From an uncultured Bacilli bacterium (GTDB taxonomy: Bacteria; Bacillota_I; Bacilli_A; RF39; UBA660), in assembly GCA_949065595.1 (NCBI GenBank), contig CARSXK010000004.1, forward strand, positions 1 through 56,801: a stretch of DNA of 56,801 nt, read 5' to 3'. Within the stretch, counting starts at the first letter, position 1, and each line of letters begins with the position of its first letter. This document shows positions 12,299 through 31,692 of the stretch, piece after piece. Position numbers and translations under genes: made by a program. The notes beneath the pieces are model-generated. The model saw nothing but the letters and a program-made list of their open reading frames with translations. It did no database searches and had not been told where the DNA came from.

Positions 12299-13069
12299 AT
12301 GAAACATACCAGAGTACTTATGATAGACGACAATGTAAATTTAGTCGAAATGGTCAAGGAGTATTTTAGTAGTAGTGAACAGATTAGTATTGATTTAGTG
12401 GCTTATGATGGGCAGGAAGGGATACAAATTATTGAGGAAAAAAAGGATGAGTACGATTTAATTTTATTGGATTTGATTATGCCTAAAAAAGATGGAATGT
12501 ATGTATTGGAGGAAATGAAAGCACGCGATATTGATAAAAAAGTCATTGTGGTAACAAGCTATAATACCAGTGATATCATTCGTGAAGTTTCTGAATATGG
12601 AGTTAATTATTTTTTACTCAAACCATTTGAACTTTCTGATTTACAAAAACGAATTGTAGAAGCAACCAAAGGCAATAACGTACAAAATAAGAATATTGAT
12701 TTTTATCATAACAATCTCCAGATTTCTATTACGAAAATTTTGCACGAATTGGGGATTCCTTCTCATATTAAAGGATATCAATATATTCGGGAGGGAATTG
12801 GAATTATCTATGAAAGACCAGAAACGATTGGTGGAATTACCAAAGAATTGTACCCAGAGCTTGCTTCTAAATTTGATACAACTGTATCTCGTGTAGAACG
12901 TGCGATTCGTCATGCGATTGAAGTCAGTTGGAATCGTGGTAATTGGGATTTGATGGAAGAAATTTTTGGGCATAGCGTCGATATTGATAAGGCAAAACCA
13001 ACCAATTCAGAATTTATTGTGACAATTGCAGATAAATTAAAATTAGAAGGAAATAAAATAGGGGCATAG
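12299..13069 (+). CDS. spo0A: sporulation master regulator Spo0A
   Basis: Receiver domain ('VLMIDDN', 'LLDLIMP') plus the Spo0A-specific C-terminus '[15 protein letters not shown]'. Confidence 0.95.
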
Positions 13070-17114: not shown

Positions 17115-18188
17115 GTGTATCGAGGAAAGTATCAAAAATTATTAATTGTAGTTTCCATTTTTTTAGTTGGAATTCTTTTGTTCTTTGTTTTGAAACCACG
17201 ACAAAAAAAGCAGGATGAATACACTTGTTATCCACAAATTATTTTAAAAGGTAATAAGATTGTTTCCGTTTTTGTTGGGGAGGAGTATCAAGAATCTGGG
17301 TATGAATTAAAAGATAGTTGTGGTGAAAATTTAGAGAGTAGAATTGAAATTCAAAGTGATTTGAATAGTAATAGACCAGGTACTTATCAAATTGTTTATA
17401 AGGTTAGTAATCAATATGGTAATTTTACAGAGGAAAAACGATATGTAACAGTAAAGGCAAGTTCTCTTTCTTATCAGGATACTTACGATAAGATTGATAA
17501 TAAGGTACGGGGCTGGGGAATTCCCAATAAGAAGGATGGAGCACGACCCATTGAAGCAGGCAGTGTGAGAGAAAACCTGTTGCAATATAATGCGTATTTA
17601 ATTGGAAATGATGAAAAAAAACTATATTTGACATTTGATGAAGGAAGCAATGATACCTATTTGGAACAAATTGTAGATATACTGAATGCGAATGATGTGA
17701 AGGCAACTTTCTTTTTCTGTAGAAGATATATATTGGATCATCCTGAATTGATGAAAAAATTAGTGGAAACAGGGCATTCAGTTGGGAACCATACAGCTAA
17801 TCACTATCAGATGCCAAAATATGCAACAAGGGAAGGCTTTTCAAAATATATAGATGAGATTACAGCTGTAGAAGTGGCATTTGAACAGGTAACTGGCACT
17901 TCAATGGACCGTATTTACCGGGAGCCAAAAGGGGAATATAGTTATCGTAGTTTGCAGATTGTCAAGGATTTAGGGTATAAGACCTATTTTTGGAGCGTTG
18001 CCTATTTAGATTATGCGGATGATGTGAGCAAAGAAAGAGCTTTTCAAGAACTCACTTCTAGAGTACATAATGGCGCGATTTATTTGATTCATCCTAAAAA
18101 TAAAGGTAATTATGAAGCTATGGATGATTTTATTAAAGCGATGAAACAACAAGGTTATACATTTGATTTGGTAAAAAATATTGGATAA
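17115..18188 (+). CDS. PdaA-like polysaccharide (MurNAc) deacetylase with N-terminal TM helix and Ig-like domain
   Basis: 'LYLTFDEG', 'GNHTANH', 'FWSVAYLDY' and 'GAIYLIH' closely parallel B. subtilis PdaA motifs. GTG start behind GGGAGG. Confidence 0.8.
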   Translation: MYRGKYQKLLIVVSIFLVGILLFFVLKPRQKKQDEYTCYPQIILKGNKIVSVFVGEEYQESGYELKDSCGENLESRIEIQSDLNSNRPGTYQIVYKVSNQYGNFTEEKRYVTVKASSLSYQDTYDKIDNKVRGWGIPNKKDGARPIEAGSVRENLLQYNAYLIGNDEKKLYLTFDEGSNDTYLEQIVDILNANDVKATFFFCRRYILDHPELMKKLVETGHSVGNHTANHYQMPKYATREGFSKYIDEITAVEVAFEQVTGTSMDRIYREPKGEYSYRSLQIVKDLGYKTYFWSVAYLDYADDVSKERAFQELTSRVHNGAIYLIHPKNKGNYEAMDDFIKAMKQQGYTFDLVKNIG

Positions 18189-18196
18189 TTTATTAG

Positions 18197-18237
18197 AAAA
18201 ACGATTCACGGAGATAAAACATCAGAATCGTTTTTTT
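18197..18237 (+). terminator. intrinsic terminator of the pdaA-like gene
   Basis: AAAAACGATTC/GAATCGTTTTT stem followed by a T-run. Confidence 0.75.
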
Positions 18238-18749
18238 GATAAAAATTATTCTAATGTAGGGAAGGGATTAAAAAATAAGGTAGATATATTTTTTAAATTT
18301 ATTAATAACGTTATCAATAAACATAAAGGTAAATTACATAACAAATTAATGAAAGAATTTGGAATTAATTCTAATATAAATAATATGTTAATAAGTAGAA
18401 TATTTAATGTAAAATCTAGATTTAAAGATACGGGTGAATTTATAAAAGTAAAAACTTATTACTGGGAATTAATATTTTAATCATTTAATAGTTAAAGAAT
18501 TGTTTGACCAAAAAGTAAAGTATCGATTTTATTATTAATTTTGGTTTACTATGTAAGAAAATTATATCTATGGGACTGCATTTATTAATGTGGTTTTTTC
18601 TTTATAAGTGTCTTACTAGTGAGAAATAATTAGTATTTGTTAAATAATTTTACGCAAATAGTCAAATTTTCTTGAATTTCATGTTATACTTAAATTAGAA
18701 AGGTGCTAATCTGAAAGAAAAATATATTTATTACGAAAAGGCGAGAGGA

Positions 18750-19076
18750 ATGAGTATTAATATGGAAGAATTAACTAAAAAGATAAGAAAATTTGCAGAG
18801 GAAAGAGATTGGTTACAATTTAACACCCCAGAAAATCTTGCTAAATCAATTGCGATAGAGGCTGGAGAATTATTAGAGTGTTTTCAGTGGAATAGCAATT
18901 ATGATAAGGATGAATTAAAATATGAAATAGCGGATGTAATGAATTATTGTATATTATTGTGTTCACAAATAGGAGTGAATCCGAAAGAAATAATTCTTGA
19001 AAAAATGGATATATCTGCTAAAAAATATCCAGTTGATAAGGCAAAAGGAGTTAGTACAAAATATACTAAATTATAG
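18750..19076 (+). CDS. MazG-like / DCTPP1-like nucleotide pyrophosphohydrolase
   Basis: 'FAEERDWLQFNTPENLAKSIAIEAGELLECFQW...EIADVMNYCILL' is the typical short all-alpha NTP-PPase pattern. Confidence 0.7.
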   Translation: MSINMEELTKKIRKFAEERDWLQFNTPENLAKSIAIEAGELLECFQWNSNYDKDELKYEIADVMNYCILLCSQIGVNPKEIILEKMDISAKKYPVDKAKGVSTKYTKL

Positions 19077-19095
19077 TTTTAAGGAGATATATACT

Positions 19096-20868
19096 ATGGA
19101 ATTAACCAATCCTATTATAAAAAAAATAGAGGACAATGAATTTAGTTTAAGCCAATTTGAAGAACAAATAAATGCCTGTAAAGATAAAAATGAAAAAATG
19201 ATTATACGGGATTATCCAACTGTATATATTCATACATGGGAAAATAAGGGTATTTATGAGGTTTATGTTGGAGAAACAAATGATATTTTTAGAAGAACAA
19301 GACAGCATTATGAGGATAGCCGATTTGCAGAAAACTGGCAATATAATTTAAAGTTAAGTGATAATAGTTTATATGTGATAGGCCATGAGCATTTTAATAA
19401 GTCATTAACTTTGGATATTGAAAATAAATTAAGAGATTATTTAACGGGTGTTGATAGTGTTAGGAGAGTTCATAATATAAAGGCAAATCCACAAAATCAG
19501 TATTATCCAGCAAATGAATTTGATCAAATATTTCATAAAATATGGAAAAATTTAACAAAATATAATAATAAATTATTTCCTTTAGAGAGTGAAGTAATTA
19601 ATTCTGCAATTTTTAAAGCCTCACCATTACATAAACTAACCAGAGATCAACAAAGGGCAAAGGAATTAATAATAAGTAAAATTATAGAGGCATCAATCAC
19701 TAGAAAAAGTGGAAAATTAATATTTGTAGAGGGTGGAACAGGAACTGGTAAAACAGTATTAAATAGTAGTACTTTTTACGAATTATGTTGTATGAATGAG
19801 ACATCTATTGAGGATGATTCTAAACCAAAAATTAAAGAATTAAAATGTTGTTTAATTGTTAATCACAAGGAACAAGAAAATCTTTATAGACAAATATTCA
19901 AAAAATTTGGTATTGAGGATAATACTTTATATTCCCCAATTAAGTTTATTAATAAGCATGACATTAATAGCCCTATTGATGTTGCATTCATAGATGAGGC
20001 ACATTTATTGTTAACGCAGGGTAAGCAATCTTATAAAGGTAAGAATCAGTTGCAGGATATTATGAACCGTGCACGGGTAACTGTTGTAATGTTTGATATG
20101 AGTCAAATTTTGACTGTTGAACAATATTGGGAATATGAACTTTTAGAAAAATATAAAAATATGGCAAGAGAAAATAATAATTATATTGTTCTTACAGAAC
20201 AATTAAGAATTCAAGCGAACAAAGATGTTATTCAATGGATTGAGAACTTTACGAAAAATGGTATTGTTACTAAACTTCCAAATAATTTAGAAAACTATGA
20301 TATTAAGGTATTCGATACACCAAAGCTTTTAGAAGATATGATAAAGCAGAAAGCAAAGGATAAAAATTCGAAATTGTCTAGATTAGTGGCTACATATGAT
20401 TGGAAATATAGTTCCTTGTATACAAATAATGAACAATATTGGGAAGTAACTATAGGTAAATGGCATAAACCATGGAATTATGAAATGGCCAGAAAATTTA
20501 ACAGGAATGAGAAAAAGAAAATTAAGGACAAAGCTTGGGATGAACAAGAACATACTATTGATGAGATAGGATCAACATTTACAATTCAGGGCTTTGATTT
20601 AAATTATGTTGGTGTGATTATAGGACCATCGGTAAAATATAGAAATAATCGGATTGTTTATTGTCCTGAGTTTAGCTGGAATCGCAGGGCAGTTATAAAA
20701 AGAAGGATGTCTGATGGTACCTATAAAGAATTCGGGGAACAATTAATAAAAAATCAATTAAGAGTATTAATGACTAGAGGTGTCAATGGTCTATATATTT
20801 ATGCATGTGACGAAGAATTAAGAGAACATTTAAAAAAATGTGTTGAAAAAAGATACATATATAAATAG
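19096..20868 (+). CDS. GIY-YIG nuclease domain fused to a DUF2075 (Schlafen-group-3-helicase-like) P-loop ATPase
   Basis: N-terminal 'KGIYEVYVGETNDIFRRTRQH' (GIY...YVG...R), Walker A 'GGTGTGKT', Walker B 'VAFIDEAH', C-terminal 'LRVLMTRGVNGLYIY'. ATG 19096 follows AAGGAG, 19 nt after the MazG-like stop. Confidence 0.65.
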   Translation: MELTNPIIKKIEDNEFSLSQFEEQINACKDKNEKMIIRDYPTVYIHTWENKGIYEVYVGETNDIFRRTRQHYEDSRFAENWQYNLKLSDNSLYVIGHEHFNKSLTLDIENKLRDYLTGVDSVRRVHNIKANPQNQYYPANEFDQIFHKIWKNLTKYNNKLFPLESEVINSAIFKASPLHKLTRDQQRAKELIISKIIEASITRKSGKLIFVEGGTGTGKTVLNSSTFYELCCMNETSIEDDSKPKIKELKCCLIVNHKEQENLYRQIFKKFGIEDNTLYSPIKFINKHDINSPIDVAFIDEAHLLLTQGKQSYKGKNQLQDIMNRARVTVVMFDMSQILTVEQYWEYELLEKYKNMARENNNYIVLTEQLRIQANKDVIQWIENFTKNGIVTKLPNNLENYDIKVFDTPKLLEDMIKQKAKDKNSKLSRLVATYDWKYSSLYTNNEQYWEVTIGKWHKPWNYEMARKFNRNEKKKIKDKAWDEQEHTIDEIGSTFTIQGFDLNYVGVIIGPSVKYRNNRIVYCPEFSWNRRAVIKRRMSDGTYKEFGEQLIKNQLRVLMTRGVNGLYIYACDEELREHLKKCVEKRYIYK

Positions 20869-20997
20869 AATTTATTATCAAAATTATAATTTATGGCAAT
20901 AAAATGAAATAGAACTTCAAATGTAGCTTAAAATAGTGTTTTTTCTTTTTGTCTCCAAACTGGGCAGCTTACATATAATGATTTAGGAGGAGATTAT

Positions 20998-21039
20998 ATG
21001 AATAATTTTCAAGTCGTTGTAGATGCTGGACATGGCTGA
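20998..21039 (+). pseudogene. 5' fragment (13 codons, MNNFQVVVDAGHG*) of the split N-acetylmuramoyl-L-alanine amidase gene
   Basis: A TATAAT box (20974..20979) and AGGAGG SD precede the ATG. The frame is cut inside the Amidase_3 'DAGHGG' motif by the element. Confidence 0.8.
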
Positions 21040-21054
21040 TACAGTTATGCCAAG
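21037..21054. repeat. left terminal inverted repeat arm (TGATACAGTTATGCCAAG)
   Basis: 14/18 match to the reverse complement of 30486..30503. Confidence 0.7.
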
Positions 21055-21094
21055 ACAAGTGAGAAGGCATGTTAGGGCAGATAATACAAGGAAT

Positions 21095-21118
21095 GATACA
21101 CATTGTATCGTTTTTTTT
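21095..21118 (+). terminator. intrinsic terminator just inside the left end
   Basis: GATACA-CAT-TGTATC stem-loop, then G and T8. It would block read-through from the amidase promoter. Confidence 0.6.
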
Positions 21119-21189
21119 ATTTTGTCAAGGTAAAGGTCTTACCATGAGTTTATTTGCAATTCGTGTCTATAATAGTGTCATGAAAGGAG
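21113..21189 (+). promoter_or_regulatory. repeated ~77-nt regulatory module, copy A
   Basis: About 87% identical to 25092..25168. Contains TTGTCAA, dyad GGTAA-N5-TTACC, TATAAT and SD GAAAGGAG. Confidence 0.6.
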
Positions 21190-21196
21190 CAAAAAA

Positions 21197-21445
21197 ATGT
21201 TTAATATGGGTATTGATTGGGACAATGAAATTAAATTTATTTGTAGTGTTGATTGGGACGATATAGTTAATTTACATAATATAAGAAAAGGGTTGAAAAA
21301 GGGAGAGTTTACCGAAATACAAATTGAAGAAAGACCTTGCGTTTTAATTAGTAAGCATAACATTTTATGTAATAAAACACTTTTAGAATGCGTATGGGAA
21401 CATGATGATATATTATTTATAAAAATGAAAAAAACGGTTGATTAG
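21197..21445 (+). CDS. hypothetical protein (82 aa)
   Basis: ATG 8 nt after GAAAGGAG of module A. No recognisable motif. Confidence 0.45.
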   Translation: MFNMGIDWDNEIKFICSVDWDDIVNLHNIRKGLKKGEFTEIQIEERPCVLISKHNILCNKTLLECVWEHDDILFIKMKKTVD

Positions 21446-21645
21446 CCGTTTTCTTTTTGTATTTTATCTTTTAATTTTAAGTTATCTAGGGCATATCTTA
21501 TACATTGGTTTATCAATTCATTTCTACTAATATCAATTTCATTTGCTAGTTTGTCAATTTCTTCTAGCATAGTGTTATCTATACGAATTGTTGCAACAAC
21601 TTTTTCAATAGAAGTCGGTTTTTTATAAGGTTCAAATTCTTTCAT
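21442..21645 (-). CDS. ribbon-helix-helix (CopG/Arc-like) DNA-binding protein
   Basis: Beta-strand 'VVATIRIDNTML' followed by two helices, 'EEIDKLANEIDISRNELINQCIRYALDNL'. Confidence 0.65.
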   Translation of the reverse strand: MKEFEPYKKPTSIEKVVATIRIDNTMLEEIDKLANEIDISRNELINQCIRYALDNLKLKDKIQKENG

Positions 21646-21761
21646 AATTTCACGCCCTTTCTATATATATTTTAATGCTTTTTTGTCTTTGATAATATAC
21701 TTAATATGCGAAGTTAAAATACATCATATAATGTAATCTATGATAAAATACAAAAATGTAA

Positions 21762-21790
21762 TTGACACAATTTGATAATAGTAGTAGAAT
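21762..21790 (+). promoter_or_regulatory. sigma-A promoter TTGACA-17-TAGAAT
   Basis: Consensus -35, 17-nt spacer, good -10. Lies upstream of the surface-protein gene. Confidence 0.55.
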
Positions 21791-21872
21791 GAAATTGTCG
21801 GTAAGAAGTACCATGTCCGACATTGCAGTAATGTTGGTGGCAGTATGCAGTTATGCCAACATATGCATTATC

Positions 21873-21906
21873 GGAACACAAGGAAGTTTATCGTGTTCCA
21901 TTTTTT
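21873..21906 (+). terminator. leader terminator/attenuator upstream of the surface-protein gene
   Basis: GGAACAC/GTGTTCC stem followed by A and T6, 70 nt before ATG 21976. Confidence 0.55.
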
Positions 21907-21975
21907 AAATAATAATGTTTAAAGGACATTTATTATAGATAAAATTTTAATATGTTAGAAAGGAAAGATAAAAAA

Positions 21976-23250
21976 ATGAAAAAAACAAGTAAAATTTTAT
22001 TATCAGCATTAGCAGTATCTAGTATGTTCTTTACTATGACAGTTAATGCAGAAGAACTAACACCAAGTGAAAATCAAGAGCCAGTACAAGTAACTAGAAT
22101 GGGGGCAGAGACTTTTGATGCCATAACAAAGGAAAAATTTGATAGTATTGTCCCAAATACTATTGAAATTACTAAAACTAAAACAGAATTTTCTAATGCA
22201 GTTGTCAAAGATAATGGAAGTCTAAACGAGGATTTAACTAAAATAATAGAAGAAATTAATACAGAGATAGAAACAGAAATAATATCTTTATTTGAAAATT
22301 CAGGATATATGGATACAGAAGAGATAGAAAAAGAAGCAATAAAAGCACAATTTAATGACCCTTTTTACGATTTGTATTCAGTAACAGTTTCATTAAATAT
22401 AGATGGGAAAACAAAATATTCAAAAGATATAACAATTAAATATGCAAAAGAAAGTAATTATAGTGCAACTGATGAAACTTATGTAAAAAATGCCGTTAAC
22501 AGTATTAAATTTGCAAAATATGGCAATAGCGATTGGGGAATTGAAGAAAGTGATGCTGTATTTACAATGTATAACATAGGCGATGAAGAAAGTACTAAGA
22601 ATTGGGGGTATGAGAATTATGATTTTAATACCTTAATCAATGATAATTCTATAACTATTAAAACTTCAGTGTTTGCAGGTGGTTTTGGTGGTGGTACTCC
22701 TTGGGGTACTCCTGTATTATTACATTTTTATAAAAATGGTGTATTATATGAAACAAAGTCAATTTGGTATTTAGGTGCTTATGGAATAACACTAGAAAAT
22801 GGAACACCTGTTAATATGGCAAGATTAGAACAAGACGACGAAATTTACAAAGCAATGGCAAAAGAATTAGAAAGTAAAGGCTTTACAAATGTTCTAGGTT
22901 GTTATGAGTTGACGGCTTATGGAACAACTTATGACAATATGAGAGTATCATTTAATCTAGGAACTAACTATAATGGTAAAGAAGTGCAAATATTACATAA
23001 AAAGAAAGACAATACTTATGAAATATTTAAAACAACAGTAGCAGACGGAAAAGCAGAAATAACAGTTAATGAGTTTTCACCATTCATGATTGCTTTAACT
23101 GAAAACACTACTACTGAAAATGTAAATAAAGCACCTAACAATGCTCAAACTTCTTCAATGAATATTGTATTATATTCTATATTGGCTCTTGGCTCTCTAG
23201 TGGGAATTACTTATATATTAGTTAGCAATAAGAAAAAGGAAATAGCCTAG
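21976..23250 (+). CDS. secreted surface protein with class-B-sortase-type sorting signal (NAQTS + TM helix + KKKE tail)
   Basis: Signal peptide 'MKKTSKILLSALAVSSMFFTMTVNA'. C-terminus 'APNNAQTSSMNIVLYSILALGSLVGITYILVSNKKKEIA'. ATG 21976 follows AAAGGAAAG. Confidence 0.7.
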   Translation: MKKTSKILLSALAVSSMFFTMTVNAEELTPSENQEPVQVTRMGAETFDAITKEKFDSIVPNTIEITKTKTEFSNAVVKDNGSLNEDLTKIIEEINTEIETEIISLFENSGYMDTEEIEKEAIKAQFNDPFYDLYSVTVSLNIDGKTKYSKDITIKYAKESNYSATDETYVKNAVNSIKFAKYGNSDWGIEESDAVFTMYNIGDEESTKNWGYENYDFNTLINDNSITIKTSVFAGGFGGGTPWGTPVLLHFYKNGVLYETKSIWYLGAYGITLENGTPVNMARLEQDDEIYKAMAKELESKGFTNVLGCYELTAYGTTYDNMRVSFNLGTNYNGKEVQILHKKKDNTYEIFKTTVADGKAEITVNEFSPFMIALTENTTTENVNKAPNNAQTSSMNIVLYSILALGSLVGITYILVSNKKKEIA

Positions 23251-23276
23251 TTGCTATTTCTTTCTATTTTAGGACT

Positions 23277-24023
23277 ATGAAAAGAAAAATTAAAGTAAAA
23301 AATATTATATTGATTTTATTTATAGTAGTGTTCTTATTCTCTACTACTCAAATTGTGTTATTCTTATTTGATTCACACAAAAATAAAAAGGAAACAAAAG
23401 AACTTATACAAGATGTTATCAATATAGAAATAGAAGAAGAAAAAGAAGTTTTTAAAATTGATTTTGATAAGTTATTATCTATTAATAGTGATACTGTTGG
23501 TTGGGTACGATTTAATAGTGATAAGGTAAATAACCCTATTGTACATACAAGTGATAATTCGTATTATTTAAAAAGGTCTTTTGATAAATCATATAATCAA
23601 GCAGGAGCAATATTCATGGACTACAGAAATACATCTTTTAATGATAAAAATGTTGTATTATTCGGTCATGCTATGCTAGATGACACAATGTTTGGCTCAC
23701 TACAAGACATATTTAAAAATGGTTTCTTTGATACGAAAGAAAATAACTATATTCAAATATACAATAAAGACAATGAACTTCTAACCTATCAAATATTTAG
23801 TTATTATATTATTGAAAAGGAAGAATATTATATAACTACTTCATTTAATAGTGATAGTGATTTCAATAAATTTATTGATACCATTACAAGAAGAAGTTAT
23901 AAAAAATTTGATGTTGAAGTAAATACAAGTGATAAAATACTTACACTCTCTACTTGTTCGGGTACGGGTGGAACATCTAAAAGAAAGGTTGTACACGCAA
24001 AAAGAGTTGAAAATTTAGAATAG
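23277..24023 (+). CDS. srtB: class B sortase
   Basis: N-terminal TM anchor, 'VGWVRF...NPIVHTSDNSYYL', 'VLFGHAM', catalytic 'LTLSTCS'. Confidence 0.85.
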   Translation: MKRKIKVKNIILILFIVVFLFSTTQIVLFLFDSHKNKKETKELIQDVINIEIEEEKEVFKIDFDKLLSINSDTVGWVRFNSDKVNNPIVHTSDNSYYLKRSFDKSYNQAGAIFMDYRNTSFNDKNVVLFGHAMLDDTMFGSLQDIFKNGFFDTKENNYIQIYNKDNELLTYQIFSYYIIEKEEYYITTSFNSDSDFNKFIDTITRRSYKKFDVEVNTSDKILTLSTCSGTGGTSKRKVVHAKRVENLE

Positions 24024-24130
24024 TCTATAAAATAATTTTGGGACAAATAATTGTGATCCAAAATTATTTTTTGTTTTAATATATATAATAATGGTAAAAA
24101 ATGGTATAATTGTCGTAGGAGGAATGCTTT

Positions 24131-24592
24131 ATGAATAATGAAATAGAATTTATTTGTCAAAAATGTGGAAAAAATTTTTATAAATCAAATGAGGAAAAAG
24201 TAATAAAATGCCCCTTTTGTCATGCTAAAGATACTTTTATGTCATTAAGTCAAAAAGACTTTGAAAATATTATGGAAGTGGAAAATCTAAAAATTACTTG
24301 TGATAATTGCTTGGCTAATTTTAACGGAGAACAATTGATAACTAATGATTTTAAATGCCCAACATGTAATAAAAAGTATAGTGAAGATAGTGTATACAAT
24401 TCAATAAAAAAGATAGAAAAAAGATATGCATGTAATACATGCAATTGTAAATTTTCAACGGAAGTATTTTTTGCATATAATGGTTCTTGTCCTAATTGTC
24501 ATGATAATTTAATGTCTATTGAACAATGGGAAGATTATAAAGCAGTTGAATTAGACGGAAAAATACCTGATGAAGATTGGCAAAATTTGTAA
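24131..24592 (+). CDS. protein with three tandem CxxC...CxxC zinc-ribbon units
   Basis: 'CQKCG..KCPFC', 'CDNC..KCPTC' and 'CNTCN..CPNC'. TGGTATAAT extended -10 and AGGAGG lie upstream. Confidence 0.6.
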   Translation: MNNEIEFICQKCGKNFYKSNEEKVIKCPFCHAKDTFMSLSQKDFENIMEVENLKITCDNCLANFNGEQLITNDFKCPTCNKKYSEDSVYNSIKKIEKRYACNTCNCKFSTEVFFAYNGSCPNCHDNLMSIEQWEDYKAVELDGKIPDEDWQNL

Positions 24593-24616
24593 TATAGTGC
24601 TGAATAGAGGTTAATT

Positions 24617-25048
24617 ATGAAAAATGAAGAATTAGAAGAATTAGTATGTAGATTTGAAGATAATTTTGGTATAGACGGAAAGTTAGAGAAAAACTTTTCT
24701 GAAAAATTTAAAATACTACTAGAAGAAAAAGAAATTGAAGTAGACGAATTTATGGAAGAAACGGGGTTAAGCGATGAAATATTTGGTAATTATTGCAAAG
24801 GGAAAAGTGACCCAAGTTTAAGAAGTATAACCGCATTTTGTCATGCTTTTGAATTTGATAGAAATGCTTTTGATAGTTTATTAAAAGCGGGAGGCTTCAC
24901 AGTTAATTATCGAAAGAAAAGAGATTGTGCATATGCTTTTTTGATAACTGATTGTGCTGATTTGAGCATTGAAGATTGTAATAAAATTTTAAAAAAGATA
25001 GGGTTGGAAGAACACGAATTATTGCCAATACCTAAAAAATTAAAATAA
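24617..25048 (+). CDS. XRE-like helix-turn-helix protein
   Basis: 'FKILLEEKEIEVDEFMEETGLSDEIFGNYCKGKSDPSLRSITAFCHAF' has an HTH_3-like pattern. Confidence 0.5.
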   Translation: MKNEELEELVCRFEDNFGIDGKLEKNFSEKFKILLEEKEIEVDEFMEETGLSDEIFGNYCKGKSDPSLRSITAFCHAFEFDRNAFDSLLKAGGFTVNYRKKRDCAYAFLITDCADLSIEDCNKILKKIGLEEHELLPIPKKLK

Positions 25049-25091
25049 TATATATCGTTGTTTTATAAGGTCATAACTTAATAATTATGGC

Positions 25092-25168
25092 TTTTTTATT
25101 TTGTCAAGGTAAAGGCTTTACCGTGAGTTGATTTGCAAGTTGTGGTTATAATGGTGTCACGAAAGGAG
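25092..25168 (+). promoter_or_regulatory. repeated ~77-nt regulatory module, copy B
   Basis: Paralog of 21113..21189. The dyad here is GGTAAAG-G-CTTTACC. Confidence 0.6.
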
Positions 25169-25178
25169 GAAAGAGGCA

Positions 25179-25535
25179 TTGAAAACAAGTGATATTGTTA
25201 TTGATGTCATCAAAACTATTGGTAAAGCACCTTATCTTGCATGTAGTTGCGACCCAATTTATGAATATGATGAACATAATAACAAAACTGACAATGTAAT
25301 TGGACATAAAGTTGAAATCTTGTTGCCACACATGAAATATGCTAAATTTGGTGTTAAAGTTGATAATACAACAAACCCACTACCAACTATTGAAGATGTT
25401 GTAGAAGTTGACTTTAACAACTTAATGATTGGCATTTATGTTGACCGTGCAGGAAGAATACAACCTTATGGGAAAGCTGATAGTGTTCGTATTGCTGATA
25501 AACAAAATATCAAAATGAATGCAAAGGCTGAATAA
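25179..25535 (+). CDS. hypothetical protein, possibly DUF961/HelP-like OB-fold accessory factor
   Basis: TTG start behind GAAAGGAGG. Its size and position, directly upstream of the Rep and coupling-protein genes, resemble ICEBs1 helP and Tn916 orf22/23. The sequence resemblance is only loose. Confidence 0.35.
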   Translation: MKTSDIVIDVIKTIGKAPYLACSCDPIYEYDEHNNKTDNVIGHKVEILLPHMKYAKFGVKVDNTTNPLPTIEDVVEVDFNNLMIGIYVDRAGRIQPYGKADSVRIADKQNIKMNAKAE

Positions 25536-25553
25536 TTACTAAAATTTATTATT

Positions 25554-25602
25554 GCTACATGCTACATGCTACACAATAAGTGGTAATACTAGCACTTATT
25601 GT
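25554..25602 (+). promoter_or_regulatory. candidate Rep origin (ori/oriT): 3 x 7-nt iterons plus stem-loop with a nonanucleotide-like loop
   Basis: GCTACAT GCTACAT GCTACAC (25554..25574) overlap a 10-bp perfect stem, ACAATAAGTG/CACTTATTGT (25573..25602), with loop GTAATACTAG. Confidence 0.6.
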
Positions 25603-25606
25603 TGGT

Positions 25607-25641
25607 GCGGAGGCAATCGTGGCTATCGCCACTTGCCCCGC
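25607..25641 (+). other. GC-rich nested hairpin (possible sso or accessory origin structure)
   Basis: GCGG-A-GGCAA pairs with TTGCCCCGC, enclosing GTGGC-TATC-GCCAC. It stands out in an AT-rich context. Confidence 0.45.
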
Positions 25642-25739
25642 AATGTACATGTATTATCTAGTATGTGTAATCGCATTAGTTCTTTGAAAATTTAATTATA
25701 TTTAATATTTGCTATAACAAACTTATTGGAGGTGTATAC

Positions 25740-26741
25740 ATGGCGGAAAATAGCCAATCTAGAAAATGGCAACTGACTATAAATAACCCCCAAGAACATG
25801 GAATAACGGACGAGTTTATACGAGAACAATTATTAAAATTTGCCCCCGAATATTATTGTATGGGTCGAGAGATTGGAAACAAGACCAAGACCGAACATAT
25901 ACATCTTTTTATCTATTCTAAATCTCCTATGAGGTTTACAACTATTAAAAATCGTTTCCCTATGGCTCATATAGAAAAAGCATACGGAAGTATTAGAGAT
26001 AATATAGATTATATACAAAAAAAGGGTAAGTGGGAAAATACCGCAAAAGAAGAAACTACCATTGAGGGCAGTTTTGTAGAACATGGAACGGTACCTACCG
26101 AACTAATAGAAAAAGACGCAACTATGGGTAAATTGTTAGAAGATATAAAAGACGGGAAATCTATTATTGAAATTATAGAAGATAATCCACAATTTGCATT
26201 TAAGATTAAAGATATAGAAACTATTAGACAAACTTATCTTAATGAAAGATATTCACGAGAAAATCGTGATTTGATAGTGACATATTTAAGTGGTCCAAGC
26301 GGTGTGGGAAAAACATTTAGTATTTTTAAAAAACATAAAGCAGATAATATTTGCCGTATAACAAGTTATAATTCAAGCCAAGGCGGTATAATTTTTGATA
26401 ATTATGATAGGTCGCAAGATGTACTTGTTTTTGAGGAATTTAGAAGTCAAATAAACCTAGAAAGCATGTTAAATTATTTAGATGTTTACCCACTACGACT
26501 TCCCGCTAGATACAATAATAAAGTGGCATGTTATACGAGGGTTTATATTACATCAAATGTTCCATTTGAAAATCAATATGCGGAATATAAACTGAATTCA
26601 AGAGATTATGCAGTATATAAAGCATGGTGTCGGCGAGTTCATAATATTTATGAAATGGTAAAAGAGCAAGACGGCTCTATAAAAATAATCACACATAAAG
26701 AAACTAAAAAAGAGGAGGAAAAAGTTATTGAAAATAAATAA
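25740..26741 (+). CDS. HUH endonuclease + SF3-helicase Rep protein (CRESS-virus/plasmid Rep-like; probable relaxase/replication initiator)
   Basis: Motif I 'WQLTINNP', motif II 'HIHLFIY', motif III 'YIQKKG', Walker A 'GPSGVGKT', Walker B 'VLVFEEF', motif C 'YITSN'. Confidence 0.8.
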   Translation: MAENSQSRKWQLTINNPQEHGITDEFIREQLLKFAPEYYCMGREIGNKTKTEHIHLFIYSKSPMRFTTIKNRFPMAHIEKAYGSIRDNIDYIQKKGKWENTAKEETTIEGSFVEHGTVPTELIEKDATMGKLLEDIKDGKSIIEIIEDNPQFAFKIKDIETIRQTYLNERYSRENRDLIVTYLSGPSGVGKTFSIFKKHKADNICRITSYNSSQGGIIFDNYDRSQDVLVFEEFRSQINLESMLNYLDVYPLRLPARYNNKVACYTRVYITSNVPFENQYAEYKLNSRDYAVYKAWCRRVHNIYEMVKEQDGSIKIITHKETKKEEEKVIENK

Positions 26742-28245
26742 AATAATTGAAATAAAAGATAAAATTAAAGGTTGGTATTGTAAAAGTAAAATAGTATCTA
26801 TTATTCAATCTATACTTTTAATTACATTTAAGGTTTTAAAATATATAATATGGCAATTATTTTATCATTGGAAGATTGGAGTATTTTTACTAACTATTAT
26901 ATGTTTATATTATTTCAATCAAAATGAAACATTGATAAATAAAGTTTTTGATTTTCATATTTTAAATTTCTATATTGCAAAAGTAATTACTTTATATGAT
27001 TTTCATAAAAATTTACAAATATCACAATATGTTTTAGAAGGTGCAATATTATTATTGATTATGTTATCTTTAATTTTTAGTTTTAGACTAAAGGATCTAA
27101 AACAAAACAAAATTAACAAAATTAAAGTATTGAAAGAAAAAGGTGTTGAATTACCATATTTTACATGGCGAACTAGATTGTGGTTAAACTTAAAAATAGC
27201 AGTATGGTATTGGAATATGAACGGAATAGACCCTAAAGTATTTGAAAGTGATGAGTTTAAAGGTAGTTTTCAGTCGGCATTTAATGTCACATTCATTGAT
27301 AAACAACCCGTAAAAAATAGTAAAAATACAATAAAATTGTTAGTTGCAAGTCGTAGATATAGTTTGCCTAACAAAATTTCAATAGATATACGAGATATAG
27401 ACTATTTTGGTCCTATATTTTTATTAGGGGAAAATTTAATAGGAAAAATAAAAATTGATATAAGTAAAAGACCTCATTTATTAATCGCAGGAGATACAGG
27501 AAGTGGTAAATCGGTGCTAATCGATTCACTTATTTATCAAGCCATGTTAAAAGGCTATGTGATTCGAGCATGTGACCCAAAACAAACTGAATTTAACGGG
27601 TGGCACAATCTTACTATAAGAAATACTAATCTTTTGAATACTGAAATTAAAGCTAGTCAATTTTTAAGAACAATGGATTTAAAAGGAACTTTAGAAGATT
27701 TAAAACTCATAGAAAAAGAATTAAGATTAAGACAAATGATTTTTGCAGATGTAAAATGTAGAAATATAGATAAATACAACAAAAAATTACACCATACAAA
27801 ATCAAGTATTCCTTTAAGTCGTGTAATTTATATTTTTGACGAGTTTGTAGAAATGATAACATCACAAGATAAAAAGACTGTATCGGAAATAGAACGAATA
27901 TTGAAACTCATAGCAACAAGAGGTCGTTCACTTGGTATACATCTTATTTTATCGTCACAAAGACCCGATTGTAATTTACTAGACGGACAAATAAAATCTA
28001 ATCTTTCCAATAGAATATGTGGTAGAATGCCTGATAGGTCGGCATCCGAAACGGCTTTAGGTAAAGGGAATTATGATGCATGTACTTTAATAGGTGAAGA
28101 CGAATTAGGTAAATTTGTTACAAATGACGGTAAATGTTTTAAAGGTTATTTGCTTGATACTGATAAATTAACGGAAGAATTACACGAGCAATATGACAAA
28201 AAAGATACAAGCAATCTAGGAGGAAATAATAATGTTGAGCAATGA
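26728..28245 (+). CDS. FtsK/SpoIIIE-TcpA-like coupling ATPase, membrane anchored
   Basis: N-terminal TM helices, Walker A 'AGDTGSGKS', Walker B 'IYIFDEF', 'GIHLILSSQRP'. Confidence 0.8.
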   Translation: MKINKIIEIKDKIKGWYCKSKIVSIIQSILLITFKVLKYIIWQLFYHWKIGVFLLTIICLYYFNQNETLINKVFDFHILNFYIAKVITLYDFHKNLQISQYVLEGAILLLIMLSLIFSFRLKDLKQNKINKIKVLKEKGVELPYFTWRTRLWLNLKIAVWYWNMNGIDPKVFESDEFKGSFQSAFNVTFIDKQPVKNSKNTIKLLVASRRYSLPNKISIDIRDIDYFGPIFLLGENLIGKIKIDISKRPHLLIAGDTGSGKSVLIDSLIYQAMLKGYVIRACDPKQTEFNGWHNLTIRNTNLLNTEIKASQFLRTMDLKGTLEDLKLIEKELRLRQMIFADVKCRNIDKYNKKLHHTKSSIPLSRVIYIFDEFVEMITSQDKKTVSEIERILKLIATRGRSLGIHLILSSQRPDCNLLDGQIKSNLSNRICGRMPDRSASETALGKGNYDACTLIGEDELGKFVTNDGKCFKGYLLDTDKLTEELHEQYDKKDTSNLGGNNNVEQ

Positions 28246-28375
28246 AAAAAGTACGATTTGCCCCCGTACTTTTGCCCAATATCTTGCATGTATTGATAAA
28301 CCTAGTATAACAAATAACTTTCATATTGACAAGCACCCTATCATACCTTTTATTGAGGGGTTGAAATATGAATAA
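28232..28375 (+). CDS. small ORF (47 aa), hypothetical
   Basis: Not in the ORF track (shorter than 60 aa). AGGAGG sits 8 nt upstream. It overlaps the end of the FtsK-like gene and the start of the next small ORF. Confidence 0.35.
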   Translation: MLSNEKSTICPRTFAQYLACIDKPSITNNFHIDKHPIIPFIEGLKYE

Positions 28376-28493
28376 ATATAAAATTGTAGTATCTAGTGAA
28401 TTTCTAACGGACACAACAACGGACGAGTTTCTATCGCTTTTTAATGATAAATTGGCGACCCTATTTATCTATTATGAACAACAAACAAGTTAA
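28368..28493 (+). CDS. small ORF (41 aa), hypothetical (candidate recombination directionality factor)
   Basis: GAGGGG SD upstream. The 8-nt overlap with the previous small ORF suggests translational coupling. It lies directly upstream of the recombinase. Confidence 0.3.
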   Translation: MNKYKIVVSSEFLTDTTTDEFLSLFNDKLATLFIYYEQQTS

Positions 28494-28510
28494 ATATTAA
28501 ATAAAGGCTG

Positions 28511-28551
28511 AAATAATACAAGTTATAGTGTATAATATACTTGTATTATTT
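28511..28551 (+). terminator. 13-bp perfect hairpin between the small ORFs and the recombinase gene
   Basis: AAATAATACAAGT/ACTTGTATTATTT with a 15-nt loop that contains TATAAT. Confidence 0.45.
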
Positions 28552-28586
28552 TGACCTTAACATGTAATTAAGGAAAGGAATATTAT

Positions 28587-30485
28587 ATGTTAAGTGAACA
28601 AAAAGGCGGTGAAACTTATTCTTATAATAATACAAAATCAAGTTATAGTATTCAAAATGTTTCGTTAGAAGATTATACAAGTTCGGTTGAGTATAAAGCA
28701 ATCAAAGATTTACTTGTAGAAGATAGTCTTATTTATTGTACTGAATTTATAAGAAAACTATTAGATATTAAAAAGCCAAATGATACCACTTGTTTTACTT
28801 GTGGCGAGGGCAATCAAATAGTCTATAAGTTAGGGTATGGAAAAAGGACTTTATTGTATGTTCGATTATCAGTTGAAGATATACAAAGAAAAGATACAAC
28901 GGTTAGTAAAAGTATTTTAAATCAGTTGCTATTGCTACTACAATATTGCAAAGACCATGACCTAGAAGTTGTTGGCATTTTCTATGAGGAAGATATAAGC
29001 GGTGGCGATGAAAGTAGACCCGAGTGGAACAAGTCCTTAACTTTTTGTGAAAGAGGACACACCGACACTTATATTTGCAAAACACAATCACGATTTGCAA
29101 GAGATGTTGAAATGATAGAACGATACTTGCATAAAAGATTTATTGAGTGGAATATTCGTTTTTTAAGTATTGTAGACCATAGCGACACATCACAAAAAGG
29201 AAATAAACTACAAAGACAAATAACCGCAATCGTTGATGAAAATAAAATTGCTGAACAATCAATAAATACTAAAGCAACTTTACGAGGTAAAAATAAGGCG
29301 GGACAATGGACGGGGTCTTTTGCTTGTTATGGCTATATAGAAGACCCAAACGACCAATATCATCTAGTAGTAGACCCACCCGCAGCCCAAGTGGTGCAAA
29401 CAATATATAAAATGTATGCGGAGGGTATGGGGTACTTTAAAATATGTAAGTATCTTAATGAACATAATATACCTACACCAAGTAAATATAAGAAATTACA
29501 AGGGTCAAACTTTGTATGTCCTGTTGCCCCAAATGGTAGCGAGTTTTGGAACATTGATACGGTTGCAAAAATATTGAAAGATGAAACATACGACGGGTTA
29601 TTGATACAAAATAGAACGGAAACAATCTCACATAATATTAAGAAGTCAAGAAAATTGCCAAAGAGTGAGCAAACTATTGTTGCTTGTGCTCATGAAAGAA
29701 TTGTTGACCCTATTATATCAAGAATAGTACGAGATAAATTTGAGGCAAGGGCGAAAAAGTCAAGTGATAGTGATGACACTATACATGCAAGACCTAAACC
29801 CGATAAAAACGGCGAGGTACATATTTTTAGTCAAAAAGTATACTGTGCTCATTGTGGGAAAATTTTTCAAAAGACTAATGCTAAAAGTGGTCCTAGGAAA
29901 AACCCAACAAAGAAAGCATATTTACTATGTAGAACAAAGAAAAGAACTTGTGGAACGGGTTGTGATAATAACTCATCAATTCGTATTGAAGTCTTGGAAC
30001 AAATAGTACTAGACGAAATTAACAAACAAATAGAGAACTACTATAATCAATCTAAATTTGAAAAAAGTTATTATGAGAAGAAAGTAAACACCAATTATGA
30101 AAAAGATATAAAAGCACTAGAGGAAGAAAAGACCACCATTGAAAAGAAAATAAAAGATAATACCAATCGTTTTGCTTTACTTTATGAAGATAGAGCGAAC
30201 GAGATTATAACAACACAAGAATTTATGTTGTTGAAAACAAAATATAATGATGAAATAGAAAGGTTTAATAATCGTGTAAGTGAGATTGATAATACCATAA
30301 TCAATTTACGAAAGAAGAAAGACCAACAAATACACGAGCAAGATATATTTAAACAATATAGACATATTGATAAATTAGATAGACTTGTTGTTGAAACCTT
30401 TATATCAAAAATAATTGTTGGAAAAGTTGATAAAGAAACAAACGAAAGGGCTATAAATATTGTTTGGAATATTTGTAGCACCTAG
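28587..30485 (+). CDS. large serine recombinase (SpoIVCA/TndX-like)
   Basis: Catalytic 'LLYVRLSVEDIQ', recombinase domain, zinc ribbon 'CAHCGK...LLCRTKKRTCGTGC', long coiled-coil tail. The stop codon is 27 nt from the right junction. Confidence 0.9.
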   Translation: MLSEQKGGETYSYNNTKSSYSIQNVSLEDYTSSVEYKAIKDLLVEDSLIYCTEFIRKLLDIKKPNDTTCFTCGEGNQIVYKLGYGKRTLLYVRLSVEDIQRKDTTVSKSILNQLLLLLQYCKDHDLEVVGIFYEEDISGGDESRPEWNKSLTFCERGHTDTYICKTQSRFARDVEMIERYLHKRFIEWNIRFLSIVDHSDTSQKGNKLQRQITAIVDENKIAEQSINTKATLRGKNKAGQWTGSFACYGYIEDPNDQYHLVVDPPAAQVVQTIYKMYAEGMGYFKICKYLNEHNIPTPSKYKKLQGSNFVCPVAPNGSEFWNIDTVAKILKDETYDGLLIQNRTETISHNIKKSRKLPKSEQTIVACAHERIVDPIISRIVRDKFEARAKKSSDSDDTIHARPKPDKNGEVHIFSQKVYCAHCGKIFQKTNAKSGPRKNPTKKAYLLCRTKKRTCGTGCDNNSSIRIEVLEQIVLDEINKQIENYYNQSKFEKSYYEKKVNTNYEKDIKALEEEKTTIEKKIKDNTNRFALLYEDRANEIITTQEFMLLKTKYNDEIERFNNRVSEIDNTIINLRKKKDQQIHEQDIFKQYRHIDKLDRLVVETFISKIIVGKVDKETNERAINIVWNICST

Positions 30486-30503
30486 TTTGGTATAGCAGTA
30501 TCA
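30486..30503. repeat. right terminal inverted repeat arm (TTTGGTATAGCAGTATCA)
   Basis: Its reverse complement matches 21037..21054 at 14 of 18 positions. Confidence 0.7.
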
Positions 30504-30512
30504 AGGGCATGG

Positions 30513-31692
30513 TGGGAGTGATCCAGGCGCTGTTGCAAATGGTGTTCAAGAAAAAGATTTAAACTTGCAAATAGCCCGTTATATGTATGAACAGTTTCAA
30601 AATAGGGGAATTCCTGTAACATTAATTCGTAGCACAGATGAAACCATTAGTCCAACAGAACGTGTTAATAGAATACTTGCTGCCTATGGTGATAACCCTA
30701 ATGTAGTTGTTATTTCCAATCACATTAATGCATCAGGATCAGCAACATCGGGCGCAGAGGGTGCTGAAGTAATCTATGCTTTGAGAAATGATGATACACT
30801 TGCCAAAAATATATTACAGGCGATTGGAAACCAAGGGCAAGTTGTAAGAACCTATTATCAAAGACGATTACCAAGTGATACTTCAAAGGACTACTACTTT
30901 ATTCACAGAAATACAGGTAGTACCCAACCTGTGATTGTAGAATATGGATATATTGACAATCCATCCGATTTAGCACGTATTCAAAATAATTATAAAAAAT
31001 ATGTGGATGCTGTTGTAAATGCAGTTATCGCAACCAAACAAGGGCAAACTATTCCGTCTGCACCAGGAACAGGAACTTCTTATGTGGTGAAACCAGGAGA
31101 TAGTTTATGGAGTATCGCAAATCGCTATAATACTACTGTAAATGCAATTAAAAATATGAATAATCTAACAAGTAATACCCTATCAGTAGGGCAGGTACTA
31201 CAAATACCAACCAGTACATCTACTGGGACAGGAACAACTTATACTGTAAAATCAGGGGATAGTCTATGGAGTATCGCAAATCGTTATAATACTACTGTGG
31301 ATGCGATTAAAAATGCCAATAATTTAACTAGCAATACCTTATCGATTGGGCAAGTACTGCAAATACCAACGAGTACATCTACTGGGACAGGAATAACTTA
31401 TACTGTAAAATCAGGGGATAGTTTATGGAGTATTGCAAATCGTTATAATACTACTGTAAGTGCAATCAAAAGTGCCAACAATTTAACAAGTGACATACTA
31501 TCCATTGGGCAAGTACTACAAATACCAACGAGTACATCTACTGGGGCAGGAACTACTTATACCGTGAAATCAGGAGATAGTTTGTGGAGCATTGCGAATC
31601 GTTATAATACTACTGTCGATGCCATCAAAAAAGCGAGTGGAATTATCAGTAATAATTTAACCATTGGTCAAGTATTAACCATTCCAAATTAG
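30513..31692 (+). pseudogene. 3' portion of the split N-acetylmuramoyl-L-alanine amidase (Amidase_3 + 4 LysM)
   Basis: The frame opens at 30496 and reads 'GHGGSDPGAVANGVQEKDLNLQIARYM...ISNHINAS...EYGYIDN', then four LysM repeats. It has no start or SD of its own (the track uses TTG 30565). Confidence 0.8.
31081..31689 (+). repeat. four tandem ~159-bp LysM-plus-TSTSTGTG-linker coding repeats
   Basis: 'TYTVKSGDSLWSIANRYNTTV.AIK.ANNLTSN.LSIGQVLQIP' occurs four times with near-identical DNA. Confidence 0.9.

Follow-up and report, generated by a model that had tools for sequence, protein, structure and literature searches.

A mobile gene pair encoding a DCTPP1-like pyrophosphatase and a GIY-YIG nuclease fused to a DUF2075 helicase: a candidate antiphage module in an uncultured Bacilli bacterium

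Introduction

The DNA considered here, hereafter the window, is a stretch of 56,801 nucleotides (nt) from an uncultured Bacilli bacterium (GenBank assembly GCA_949065595.1, contig CARSXK010000004.1), and the element in question is a two-gene island in it. Gene 1 encodes a small all-alpha pyrophosphatase of the MazG-like type, and gene 2 a GIY-YIG nuclease fused to a DUF2075 helicase. An earlier note, made from the sequence of the window alone, had taken the island for a candidate antiphage module. Relatives of both genes in other genomes (cited, where they need to be told apart, by locus numbers such as L001) provide strong evidence that the pairing is functionally linked; they also reveal the pair to be accessory and mobile.

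The island and its two genes

Both open reading frames (ORFs) described in the earlier note are confirmed in position and in their domain assignments by Pfam and by structures (Table 1), as is the location of the island between a pdaA-like gene and the promoter of an amidase gene. The two genes have the same-strand operon arrangement attributed to them, with a spacing of exactly 19 nt from the gene 1 stop codon to the ATG of gene 2 at 19096. That ATG, and not the TTG at 18997 of the mechanical ORF list, is the gene 2 start, since homologues align from there and a ribosome-binding site (RBS), AAGGAG, precedes it. For gene 1 the listed start at 18750 should probably be moved to ATG 18762, which would give a product of 104 amino acids (aa): homologues begin with MEEL or MKEL and are 104 aa long, and an RBS, GAGAGGA, is present at 18741-18747.

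Table 1. Features of the island and its boundaries, in window coordinates
Feature	Position	Strand	Description
Gene 1 (as listed)	18750..19076	+	DCTPP1/RS21-C6-like all-alpha (d)NTP pyrophosphatase, MazG-like PF12643
Gene 2	19096..20868	+	GIY-YIG nuclease fused to DUF2075/Schlafen group-3-type SF1B helicase, 590 aa
AAGGAG ribosome-binding site of gene 2	19081..19086	+	Within the 19-nt spacer, read from sequence
GIY-YIG nuclease core of gene 2	19213..19488	+	Residues ~40-131; Y44, Y57, R67, H71, E109, N127
DUF2075 helicase/ATPase domain of gene 2	19714..20811	+	Residues 207-572, PF09848
Walker A GGTGTGKT of gene 2	19732-19755	+	P-loop motif inside the DUF2075 domain
DEAH of gene 2	19993-20004	+	Motif inside the DUF2075 domain
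Terminator hairpin and T-run of the pdaA-like (polysaccharide deacetylase) gene	18189..18243	+	Left island boundary
AT-rich upstream region travelling with the cassette	18483..18749	+	Conserved block CGCAAATAGTCAAA...TGtTATACT
Spacer with promoter/RBS of the downstream amidase gene	20869..20998	+	Right island boundary

Gene 1, a DCTPP1-like pyrophosphatase

In its listed form of 108 aa, the gene 1 product matches the Pfam MazG-like family PF12643 (E 8e-18; 64.9 bits against a curated cut-off of 27) and, when compared by sequence with proteins of solved structure, an archaeal pyrophosphatase (4qgp, 2e-20) and mouse and human DCTPP1, or RS21-C6 (2e-16). With DCTPP1 it shares the fold family and the EXXE...EXXD site, though it is shorter (104-108 as against 170 aa), is without a 10-residue insertion, and has a partner gene and a mobile context of which mammalian DCTPP1 has no counterpart. 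The four residues of the site in gene 1 (E37, E40, E59 and D62) are invariant among homologues and align with the metal ligands E63, E66, E95 and D98 of DCTPP1. The base-binding pocket of DCTPP1, which has been described (PMC13291643), is matched as well: W21 and W47 take the places of the Trp47/Trp73 base sandwich, and F15, F24, Y66 and Y93 those of Phe41, Phe50, Tyr102 and Tyr129. Across 26 pyrophosphatase partners of DUF2075 genes, both the metal and the pocket residues are invariant or nearly so, and on this conservation gene 1 very probably encodes an active pyrimidine-type deoxynucleoside triphosphate (dNTP) pyrophosphatase.

The correspondence does not extend to the cytosine selectivity filter of DCTPP1, His38/His51, in place of which gene 1 has Ile12 and Asn25. 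Most homologues retain a His equivalent to His51, while the His38 position is not kept. Asn25 (18822-18824) is shared by the window with L001 and L008, its clade; nearly every other pyrophosphatase paired with a DUF2075 gene has His at this place, and the Asn may signify a shifted substrate preference.

NCBIfam has no informative model for either gene. The second MazG-like copy that had been pointed out at 803-1132 is a real gene of the canonical type (PF03819, E 3e-11); as a candidate paralogue of gene 1 it was rejected on account of its 13% identity and different Pfam family.

Gene 2, a nuclease-helicase

The P-loop ATPase with its GGTGTGKT motif, DEAH box and DUF2075 C-terminus is as the earlier note had it, the match to PF09848 (DUF2075/SLFN-g3_helicase) being at E 4e-86. 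Walker A (GxGKT) and DEAH are invariant in alignments of 24 close and 67 distant members, and homologues of gene 2 number 3817 at E<=1e-10. Foldseek matches of an AF2 model of the whole protein (pLDDT 75) are superfamily 1B (SF1B) helicases, namely Dna2, RecD, SLFN11, SLFN14, Upf1 and Dda. The Schlafen group-3 proteins (SLFN11, SLFN5, SLFN13 and SLFN14) belong to the same helicase family, with SLFN11 and SLFN14 also being structural matches. In contrast to them, gene 2 has a GIY-YIG DNA nuclease instead of the Schlafen (AlbA_2) RNase domain, PF04326, for which Pfam gave no match in gene 2. Bacterial Schlafen defence papers were considered as prior art and rejected, as they treat the AlbA_2 RNase domain and not DUF2075.

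Assignment of the N-domain is a matter for the family as a whole. For the window protein alone the GIY-YIG score is weak (PF01541, E 1.6e-3; 19.2 bits against a cut-off of 22.6, over half of the model), and to that extent the original motif call was on thin ground; at the family level it stands. A profile search with the N-domain yielded 625 clusters at 50% identity, and PF01541 is detected at E<=0.01 in 60 of 67 full-length family representatives (best 1e-12), DUF2075 being detected in all 67. A separate AF2 model of N-domain residues 1-184 (pLDDT 86; ~90 in core residues 40-131) has the topology of a GIY-YIG core, beta-beta-alpha-alpha-beta-alpha. In a Foldseek search of BFVD, a library of viral structures, the named top matches are almost all GIY-YIG, SegD and I-TevI-like homing endonucleases (E 2.7e-4 to 5e-2). 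A fold search of PDB with the N-domain model returned no significant match, its first GIY-YIG nuclease, HIGLE, standing at rank 29, and a PDB sequence search with gene 2 or its N-domain gave nothing even at E 10; it took the viral library to bring out the GIY-YIG fold.

Y44, Y57, G59, E60, R67, H71, D107, E109, N127 and N131 are invariant in the 24 close and 67 distant members. The spacing of the catalytic residues matches that of I-TevI, Y6/Y17/R27/H31/E75/N90. The N-domain is accepted, at the family level, as a GIY-YIG nuclease and, from the retention of these residues, is regarded as catalytically intact.

The two genes as partners

For the scan with gene 2, one genome was taken per species and the best 80 of 579 loci were analysed; 76 of the 80 are informative, in the sense of having at least 420 nt on both sides of the gene 2 relative. 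A MazG-like gene is directly adjacent, on the same strand, in 73 of the 80 loci (71 of the 76 informative ones), upstream of the gene 2 relative in 16 and downstream in 57, and the intergenic gaps of the paired loci are -4 to 82 nt in all but one. Contig ends truncate two of the unpaired loci, and in three of the five informative exceptions a transposase or a group II intron is present at the expected site. Where one protein is closer to its window counterpart, the other tends to be so too (the two identities co-vary, Spearman 0.72, p 7e-13). There are nevertheless loci whose pyrophosphatase is 81% identical while the helicase, encoded in reversed gene order, is 54-59% identical, and modules have therefore been exchanged.

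The reverse scan, whose taxa were Bacillota, Actinomycetota, Saccharibacteria, Bacteroidota (Muribaculaceae), Spirochaetota (Spirochaetales) and one Methanobrevibacter, revealed a DUF2075 gene adjoining the gene 1 relative in 60 of 80 loci. Of these DUF2075 neighbours, 31 have a GIY-YIG N-domain and 29 a PD-(D/E)XK N-domain of ~260 residues with the motif R.DF...ELKQW. The PD-(D/E)XK-type sister proteins weakly match the PADLOC models Nhi, AbiO and PDC-S41, the first two at E 1e-14 to 1e-18; the sole PADLOC match of gene 2 itself is to PDC-S41 (4.7e-6), over the C-terminus. Co-occurrence of the two families, on which the earlier note had let its interpretation hang, is at 71/76 and 60/80 far beyond chance, and the evidence is strong that it reflects a functional link with the helicase, because the partnership outlasts both inversion of the gene order and replacement of the nuclease domain.

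One alternative is that two independent anti-replication effectors travel together without coupling, the one depleting canonical dCTP and the other a stand-alone nuclease-helicase comparable to Nhi. Nhi, Nhi-like and AbiO, validated defence proteins consisting of a nuclease plus DUF2075, do act as single genes, defence genes cluster generally, and where gene 1 relatives are without a DUF2075 gene, their neighbours include a Dam methylase, type III restriction-modification (R-M) and PDC-M33A. However, the gene 2 family is nearly always accompanied by the DCTPP1-like partner, and a partner that is near-obligate (71/76) argues against gene 2 acting as a single gene. Adjacency at operon distance in >90% of loci, its survival of gene-order inversion and nuclease-domain exchange, and the co-variation of the proteins are likewise unlike loose co-location in an island, and render uncoupled effectors very improbable.

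Several variants of the arrangement were seen. At L053 (3729-7782), a PD-(D/E)XK-type DUF2075 gene (625 aa) is followed by the pyrophosphatase gene and then by a GIY-YIG-DUF2075 gene. Some PD-(D/E)XK-type loci have a third gene, small and highly variable (140-284 aa, no family assigned), between the pyrophosphatase and DUF2075 genes (L082 4302-4799, L084 4254-4898, L090 4325-4747, L094 4324-4890 and L095 4323-5177). At L087 (494-4675), a gene 1 relative (~80% identical) comes after a PDC-M33A candidate-defence protein (E 4e-125) and two genes, and next after it is a second small protein with only a sub-threshold Pfam match, to CotH; no DUF2075 gene was found within this locus, which ends ~750 nt past the pyrophosphatase gene.

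Mobility and a variable hotspot

When the flanking proteins of 81 loci were clustered, only the two genes were common, the next flank cluster being present in 8/81. The window organism is a spore-former (Spo0A at 12299-13069) related to Bacilli/Bacillales metagenome-assembled genomes (MAGs) from the gut. Seven related species share, at least partly, the synteny Spo0A-iPGM-NAGPA-pdaA upstream of the island; this refers to the iPGM-like, NAGPA and pdaA-like genes in six of the species and, for the stretch of L176, to the pdaA-like gene only, with Spo0A being included where the contig reaches. The pair is in one of them (L001) and not in the other six. Since it is missing from close relatives in which the upstream gene order is the same, the pair is accessory and horizontally mobile; that the locus might be core in all relatives, a prospect the earlier note had set against itself, is not what is seen.

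In L001, the closest relative with the pair, the two proteins are 73% and 91% identical to those of the window, and the cassette together with ~270 nt upstream (18483-20881) has 73-80% DNA identity to it, though the genes to the left differ. There, a PRiA4_ORF3 protein and the pair are followed immediately by Wadjet JetA/JetB/JetC (E 1.7e-83, 7e-50 and 3e-272). The gap between the pdaA-like and amidase genes (equivalent to 18240-20998 of the window) is a variable hotspot among L170-L176 and L001, elsewhere containing AbiEi/AbiEii (L171), an ABC transporter (L174 and L175), phage-like regulators (L173) or other genes.

Homologues are found on 106 plasmid records, of Lactobacillaceae plasmids and Bacillus cereus-group megaplasmids, again with an adjacent 'nucleotide pyrophosphohydrolase'. 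Among culturable strains, the family is present on plasmids of L. plantarum and L. salivarius and on plasmid poh1 of B. thuringiensis ATCC 10792. A search of phage genomes gave only 4 weak matches, and the cassette is therefore not typically phage-borne.

Defence neighbourhood and a parallel NUDIX pair

For each of the 80 loci, the two genes to the left and the two to the right were collected, which gave a neighbour set of 294 proteins. Among the strong matches to defence families are type IV restriction (5e-188), MADS, Cas9, PbeA, PARIS AriA and AbiO/Nhi, and further ones are to a DRT-associated NERD helicase, Thoeris ThsA/ThsB, AbiL, AbiE and PDC-M12A. In keeping with the expectation of a defence-island setting, neighbours are often defence genes, and the neighbourhoods are clearly richer in them than the average part of a genome, the enrichment estimate being a rough lower bound from aggregated counts and not a proper statistic.

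A second type of pair is also pertinent. In at least 10 loci (L161, L050, L045, L076, L073, L065, L102, L119, L128 and L154), a NUDIX gene plus a gene for a ~960-aa helicase stand beside the MazG-like/DUF2075 pair, as on the L. plantarum plasmid NZ_CP028230 (L161 1342-4639), where a NUDIX (deoxy)nucleoside triphosphate pyrophosphohydrolase and a 961-aa DEAD/DEAH helicase precede the pair. It is from helicases of this ~960-aa kind that the neighbour set derives its matches to DUF3427 and type IV restriction. DUF3427 modification-dependent enzymes have been noted sometimes to adjoin DUF2075 NTPases, and DUF2075 can be fused to GIY-YIG or PD-(D/E)XK domains (Lutz et al. 2019). DCTPP1 and the NUDIX enzyme Orf135 of E. 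coli are both 5-methyl-dCTP sanitisers. It is mainly because two pairs, each of a dNTP pyrophosphatase and a helicase/nuclease, sit side by side that a role connected with modified pyrimidine nucleotides would be favoured for the cassette. Nucleotide-depletion defences (dCTP deaminase, dGTPase) and type IV restriction likewise halt the replication of phages by way of the dNTP pool or of modified DNA, with type IV enzymes and the NUDIX plus helicase pair being frequent neighbours of the window-type cassette. The enzyme family of gene 1, an all-alpha pyrophosphatase, nevertheless differs from dCTP deaminase and dGTPase, and none of the modification-reading domains SRA, PUA and DUF3427 was found in gene 2.

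Known systems and prior art

Nhi (S. epidermidis SERP2475), Nhi-like (B. cereus FSL H8-0482; Millman et al. 2022) and lactococcal AbiO likewise have an N-terminal nuclease and a C-terminal DUF2075/SF1B helicase and, as with the window pair, are accessory and occur in defence contexts; their nuclease is PD-(D/E)XK, whereas that of gene 2 is GIY-YIG. Nhi degrades phage replication intermediates, and AbiO is toxic at high copy number. Our verdict is that the cassette is in the same functional class as these three, as a variant with GIY-YIG and a pyrophosphatase, and is not a new kind of system.

The earlier note did not recognise the pairing as a named defence system, which is right but incomplete. 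Supplementary Table S2 of Millman et al. (2022) has a candidate 'Pyrophosphatase' made up of a pyrophosphatase and DUF2075. In that study 45 candidates, obtained from defence-island statistics, were challenged with 26 phages, the hosts being E. coli and B. subtilis, and 21 were verified, with the caveat that unverified candidates may still defend under other conditions. The entries are SG192, from B. firmus LK28 (98-aa pyrophosphatase and 643-aa DUF2075), which is marked 'x', and SG193, from B. thuringiensis Lr3/2 (619-aa DUF2075 and 108-aa pyrophosphatase). Their pyrophosphatases are 40-44% identical to gene 1 and are likewise beside a DUF2075 protein, which differs from that of the window in being of the PD-(D/E)XK type (RVDF...VELKQW and RIDL...VELKQW) and not GIY-YIG. 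A full-text literature search found no paper on DUF2075 with MazG or DCTPP1 in defence, that supplementary table being the only trace. The pairing is thus one that had already been shortlisted, though it was given no name, was not taken up in the main text and was never validated.

Boundaries of the island and the adjacent mobile element

The terminator ascribed to the pdaA-like gene is seen as an inverted repeat with 19-nt arms, 89% complementary, followed by TTTTTTT; a G+C-based terminator scan of 18100-21100 made no calls, this hairpin included. Of the AT-rich flanks of ~500 bp that had been described, the upstream one is real, non-coding and of 20.6% GC, while on the 3' side there are just 130 nt from gene 2 to the amidase start codon; the two genes are of 28% GC and the neighbouring pdaA-like gene of 33%. 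For the extended -10 promoter proposed for the pair, the evidence is divided. A consensus promoter scan of 18100-21100 gave 24 sites against 23.4 expected, which is not above chance in AT-rich DNA, but TGtTATACT at 18682-18690 (TG 18682-18683, TATACT 18685-18690) is inside the block conserved in L001, which reads CGCAAATAGTCAAA...TGnTATAC. The amidase promoter/RBS region has a homologous copy upstream of the intact amidase gene in L174. Direct or inverted repeats flanking the pair, of the kind left by transposons or integration, were represented only by weak AT-rich matches, and an Rfam search of 17900-22100 gave no match.

A 99-aa ORF at 18181-18480, called as a gene in public assemblies, overlaps the end and the terminator of the pdaA-like gene in 21%-GC DNA; it is without a family match and without a homologue in relatives, and is probably not a real gene. 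Four independent same-strain assemblies with an identical pdaA-like protein (L166, L167, L168 and L169) have contigs that break off where the AT-rich region begins, 140-250 nt past the end of the pdaA-like gene, for which strain heterogeneity or low coverage could be responsible.

To the right of the pair, the amidase gene (Amidase_3 and four LysM) is split, its first 13 codons, MNNFQVVVDAGHG, being at 20999-21037 and the rest from ~30505 (30505-31692); it is intact in the relatives L174 and L176. The insert (~21038-30509, ~9.5 kb) carries an RHH gene, a surface protein and sortase, an HTH gene, a Viral_Rep-like gene, an FtsK/SpoIIIE ATPase and a large serine recombinase (28587-30485), and with CATGG at both junctions it is therefore an integrated mobilisable element. 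Membership of the pair in this serine-recombinase element was considered and rejected, since the left junction of the element, at 21038, interrupts the amidase gene and so comes after the pair.

Function and alternatives

What we infer from these observations, with a probability of roughly 0.55, is a mobile defence cassette whose helicase-nuclease would attack replicating foreign DNA and whose pyrophosphatase would remove a dNTP, probably a modified pyrimidine one. By analogy with Nhi and AbiO, gene 2 would be the effector: its ATP-driven SF1B helicase would load on foreign or replicating DNA and present that DNA to the apparently intact GIY-YIG nuclease. Gene 1 would hydrolyse a pyrimidine dNTP, probably a C5-modified dCTP-like one, to dNMP and pyrophosphate (PPi), acting as the near-obligate partner that clears non-canonical dNTPs, whether phage-made or recycled from degraded modified DNA. 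Their removal would deprive the phage of a protective base and, at the same time, prevent the host from building modified bases into its own DNA and thereby becoming a target of the nuclease-helicase. Such a role, part safeguard and part starvation, is preferred because it fits the asymmetric dependence of the partners (gene 2 relatives without the pyrophosphatase in 5/76, the pyrophosphatase without a DUF2075 neighbour in 20/80), the parallel NUDIX pair, and hints of toxicity in the cloning failure of SG193 and in AbiO.

Asymmetry of this sort is also what a toxin-antitoxin-like addiction cassette would give, with a toxic nuclease-helicase neutralised by the pyrophosphatase, for instance through removal of a nucleotide cofactor or activator, and with islands and plasmids being stabilised as a result. 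The presence of the pair on plasmids and beside mobile elements, the failed cloning of SG193 and the toxicity of AbiO at high copy number are in accord with this. Yet a complete catalytic site kept over wide phylogenetic distance, and in either gene order, is untypical of a labile antitoxin, and toxicity does not discriminate, since many defence systems are also toxic if unbalanced; we consider an addiction cassette quite unlikely.

A more far-reaching version of the defence reading, which seems doubtful at present, would make gene 1 a dedicated destroyer of phage-made modified pyrimidine dNTPs (5-methyl- or 5-hydroxymethyl-dCTP, modified dUTP) that works with a Schlafen-helicase-type nuclease, cutting off the supply for DNA hypermodification and so stripping the phage of its anti-restriction shield while protecting the host from self-targeting. 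The partnership of DCTPP1 and the SLFN group-3 helicase, both of them still present in humans, would then be ancient, and DCTPP1 would have an antiviral role hitherto unrecognised.

Several points weigh against a defence cassette. Of the gene 1 relatives, 20 of 80 are without a DUF2075 neighbour, some of them alone among housekeeping genes, and the enzyme can therefore act as an ordinary pool sanitiser. Its exact substrate is not readable from the sequence and is uncertain in the window, because the cytosine selectivity filter of DCTPP1 is not kept. In PADLOC, gene 1 matches none of the models and gene 2 gives no match to Nhi or AbiO at E<=0.1. Many neighbours, among them two-component systems, tRNA synthetases and others, are housekeeping genes, and the enrichment in defence genes is as roughly estimated as described above. 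Of the two Millman et al. (2022) entries, SG193 was marked 'Cloning failed' and the 'x' of SG192 is read, by analogy with the 'v' on the verified Nhi-like entry and with the column header unread, as no defence seen. Lack of protection on expression, which the earlier note had named as telling against its proposal, is thus partly encountered for the PD-(D/E)XK sister, with the 'x' taken to mean not verified and the phage panel being limited; SG192 has a different nuclease variant, and the panel was possibly without relevant targets.

Several of these points would suit a genome-maintenance module, in which the pyrophosphatase clears the pool of non-canonical dNTPs and the GIY-YIG helicase removes non-canonical bases, or the lesions and stalled forks that they cause, from the cell's own DNA. 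DCTPP1-type enzymes have a house-cleaning role, GIY-YIG is also the nuclease fold of UvrC and Slx1, and the pyrophosphatases that stand alone in housekeeping contexts, the many housekeeping flanks and the SG192 result, if so read, all point the same way. A repair function, however, would be expected to be conserved and syntenic, whereas the pair is patchy, absent from close relatives, plasmid-borne and of lower GC, and has genes of Wadjet, AbiE, Thoeris and type IV restriction around it. The validated nuclease-fused relatives of the helicase domain are, moreover, all defence proteins. Maintenance is, on balance, unlikely, and the mobile defence cassette remains the reading of choice. As a candidate antiphage module the pair is well supported by comparative genomics but unproven; with antiphage function itself not established, the interpretation in the earlier note is partly supported.

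Implications

Control of the nuclease-DUF2075 helicases Nhi, Nhi-like and AbiO is poorly understood. Here a whole branch of such proteins, with either GIY-YIG or PD-(D/E)XK, is tied at operon distance to a DCTPP1-like enzyme, in one archaeon and in bacteria of at least five phyla. A functional link, if there is one, would represent a new immune logic, in which editing of the nucleotide pool is coupled to destruction of DNA, possibly with specificity for modified bases. Given that both partners have human homologues, DCTPP1 and the helicase domain of the SLFN11 type, the bacterial mechanism could guide work there.

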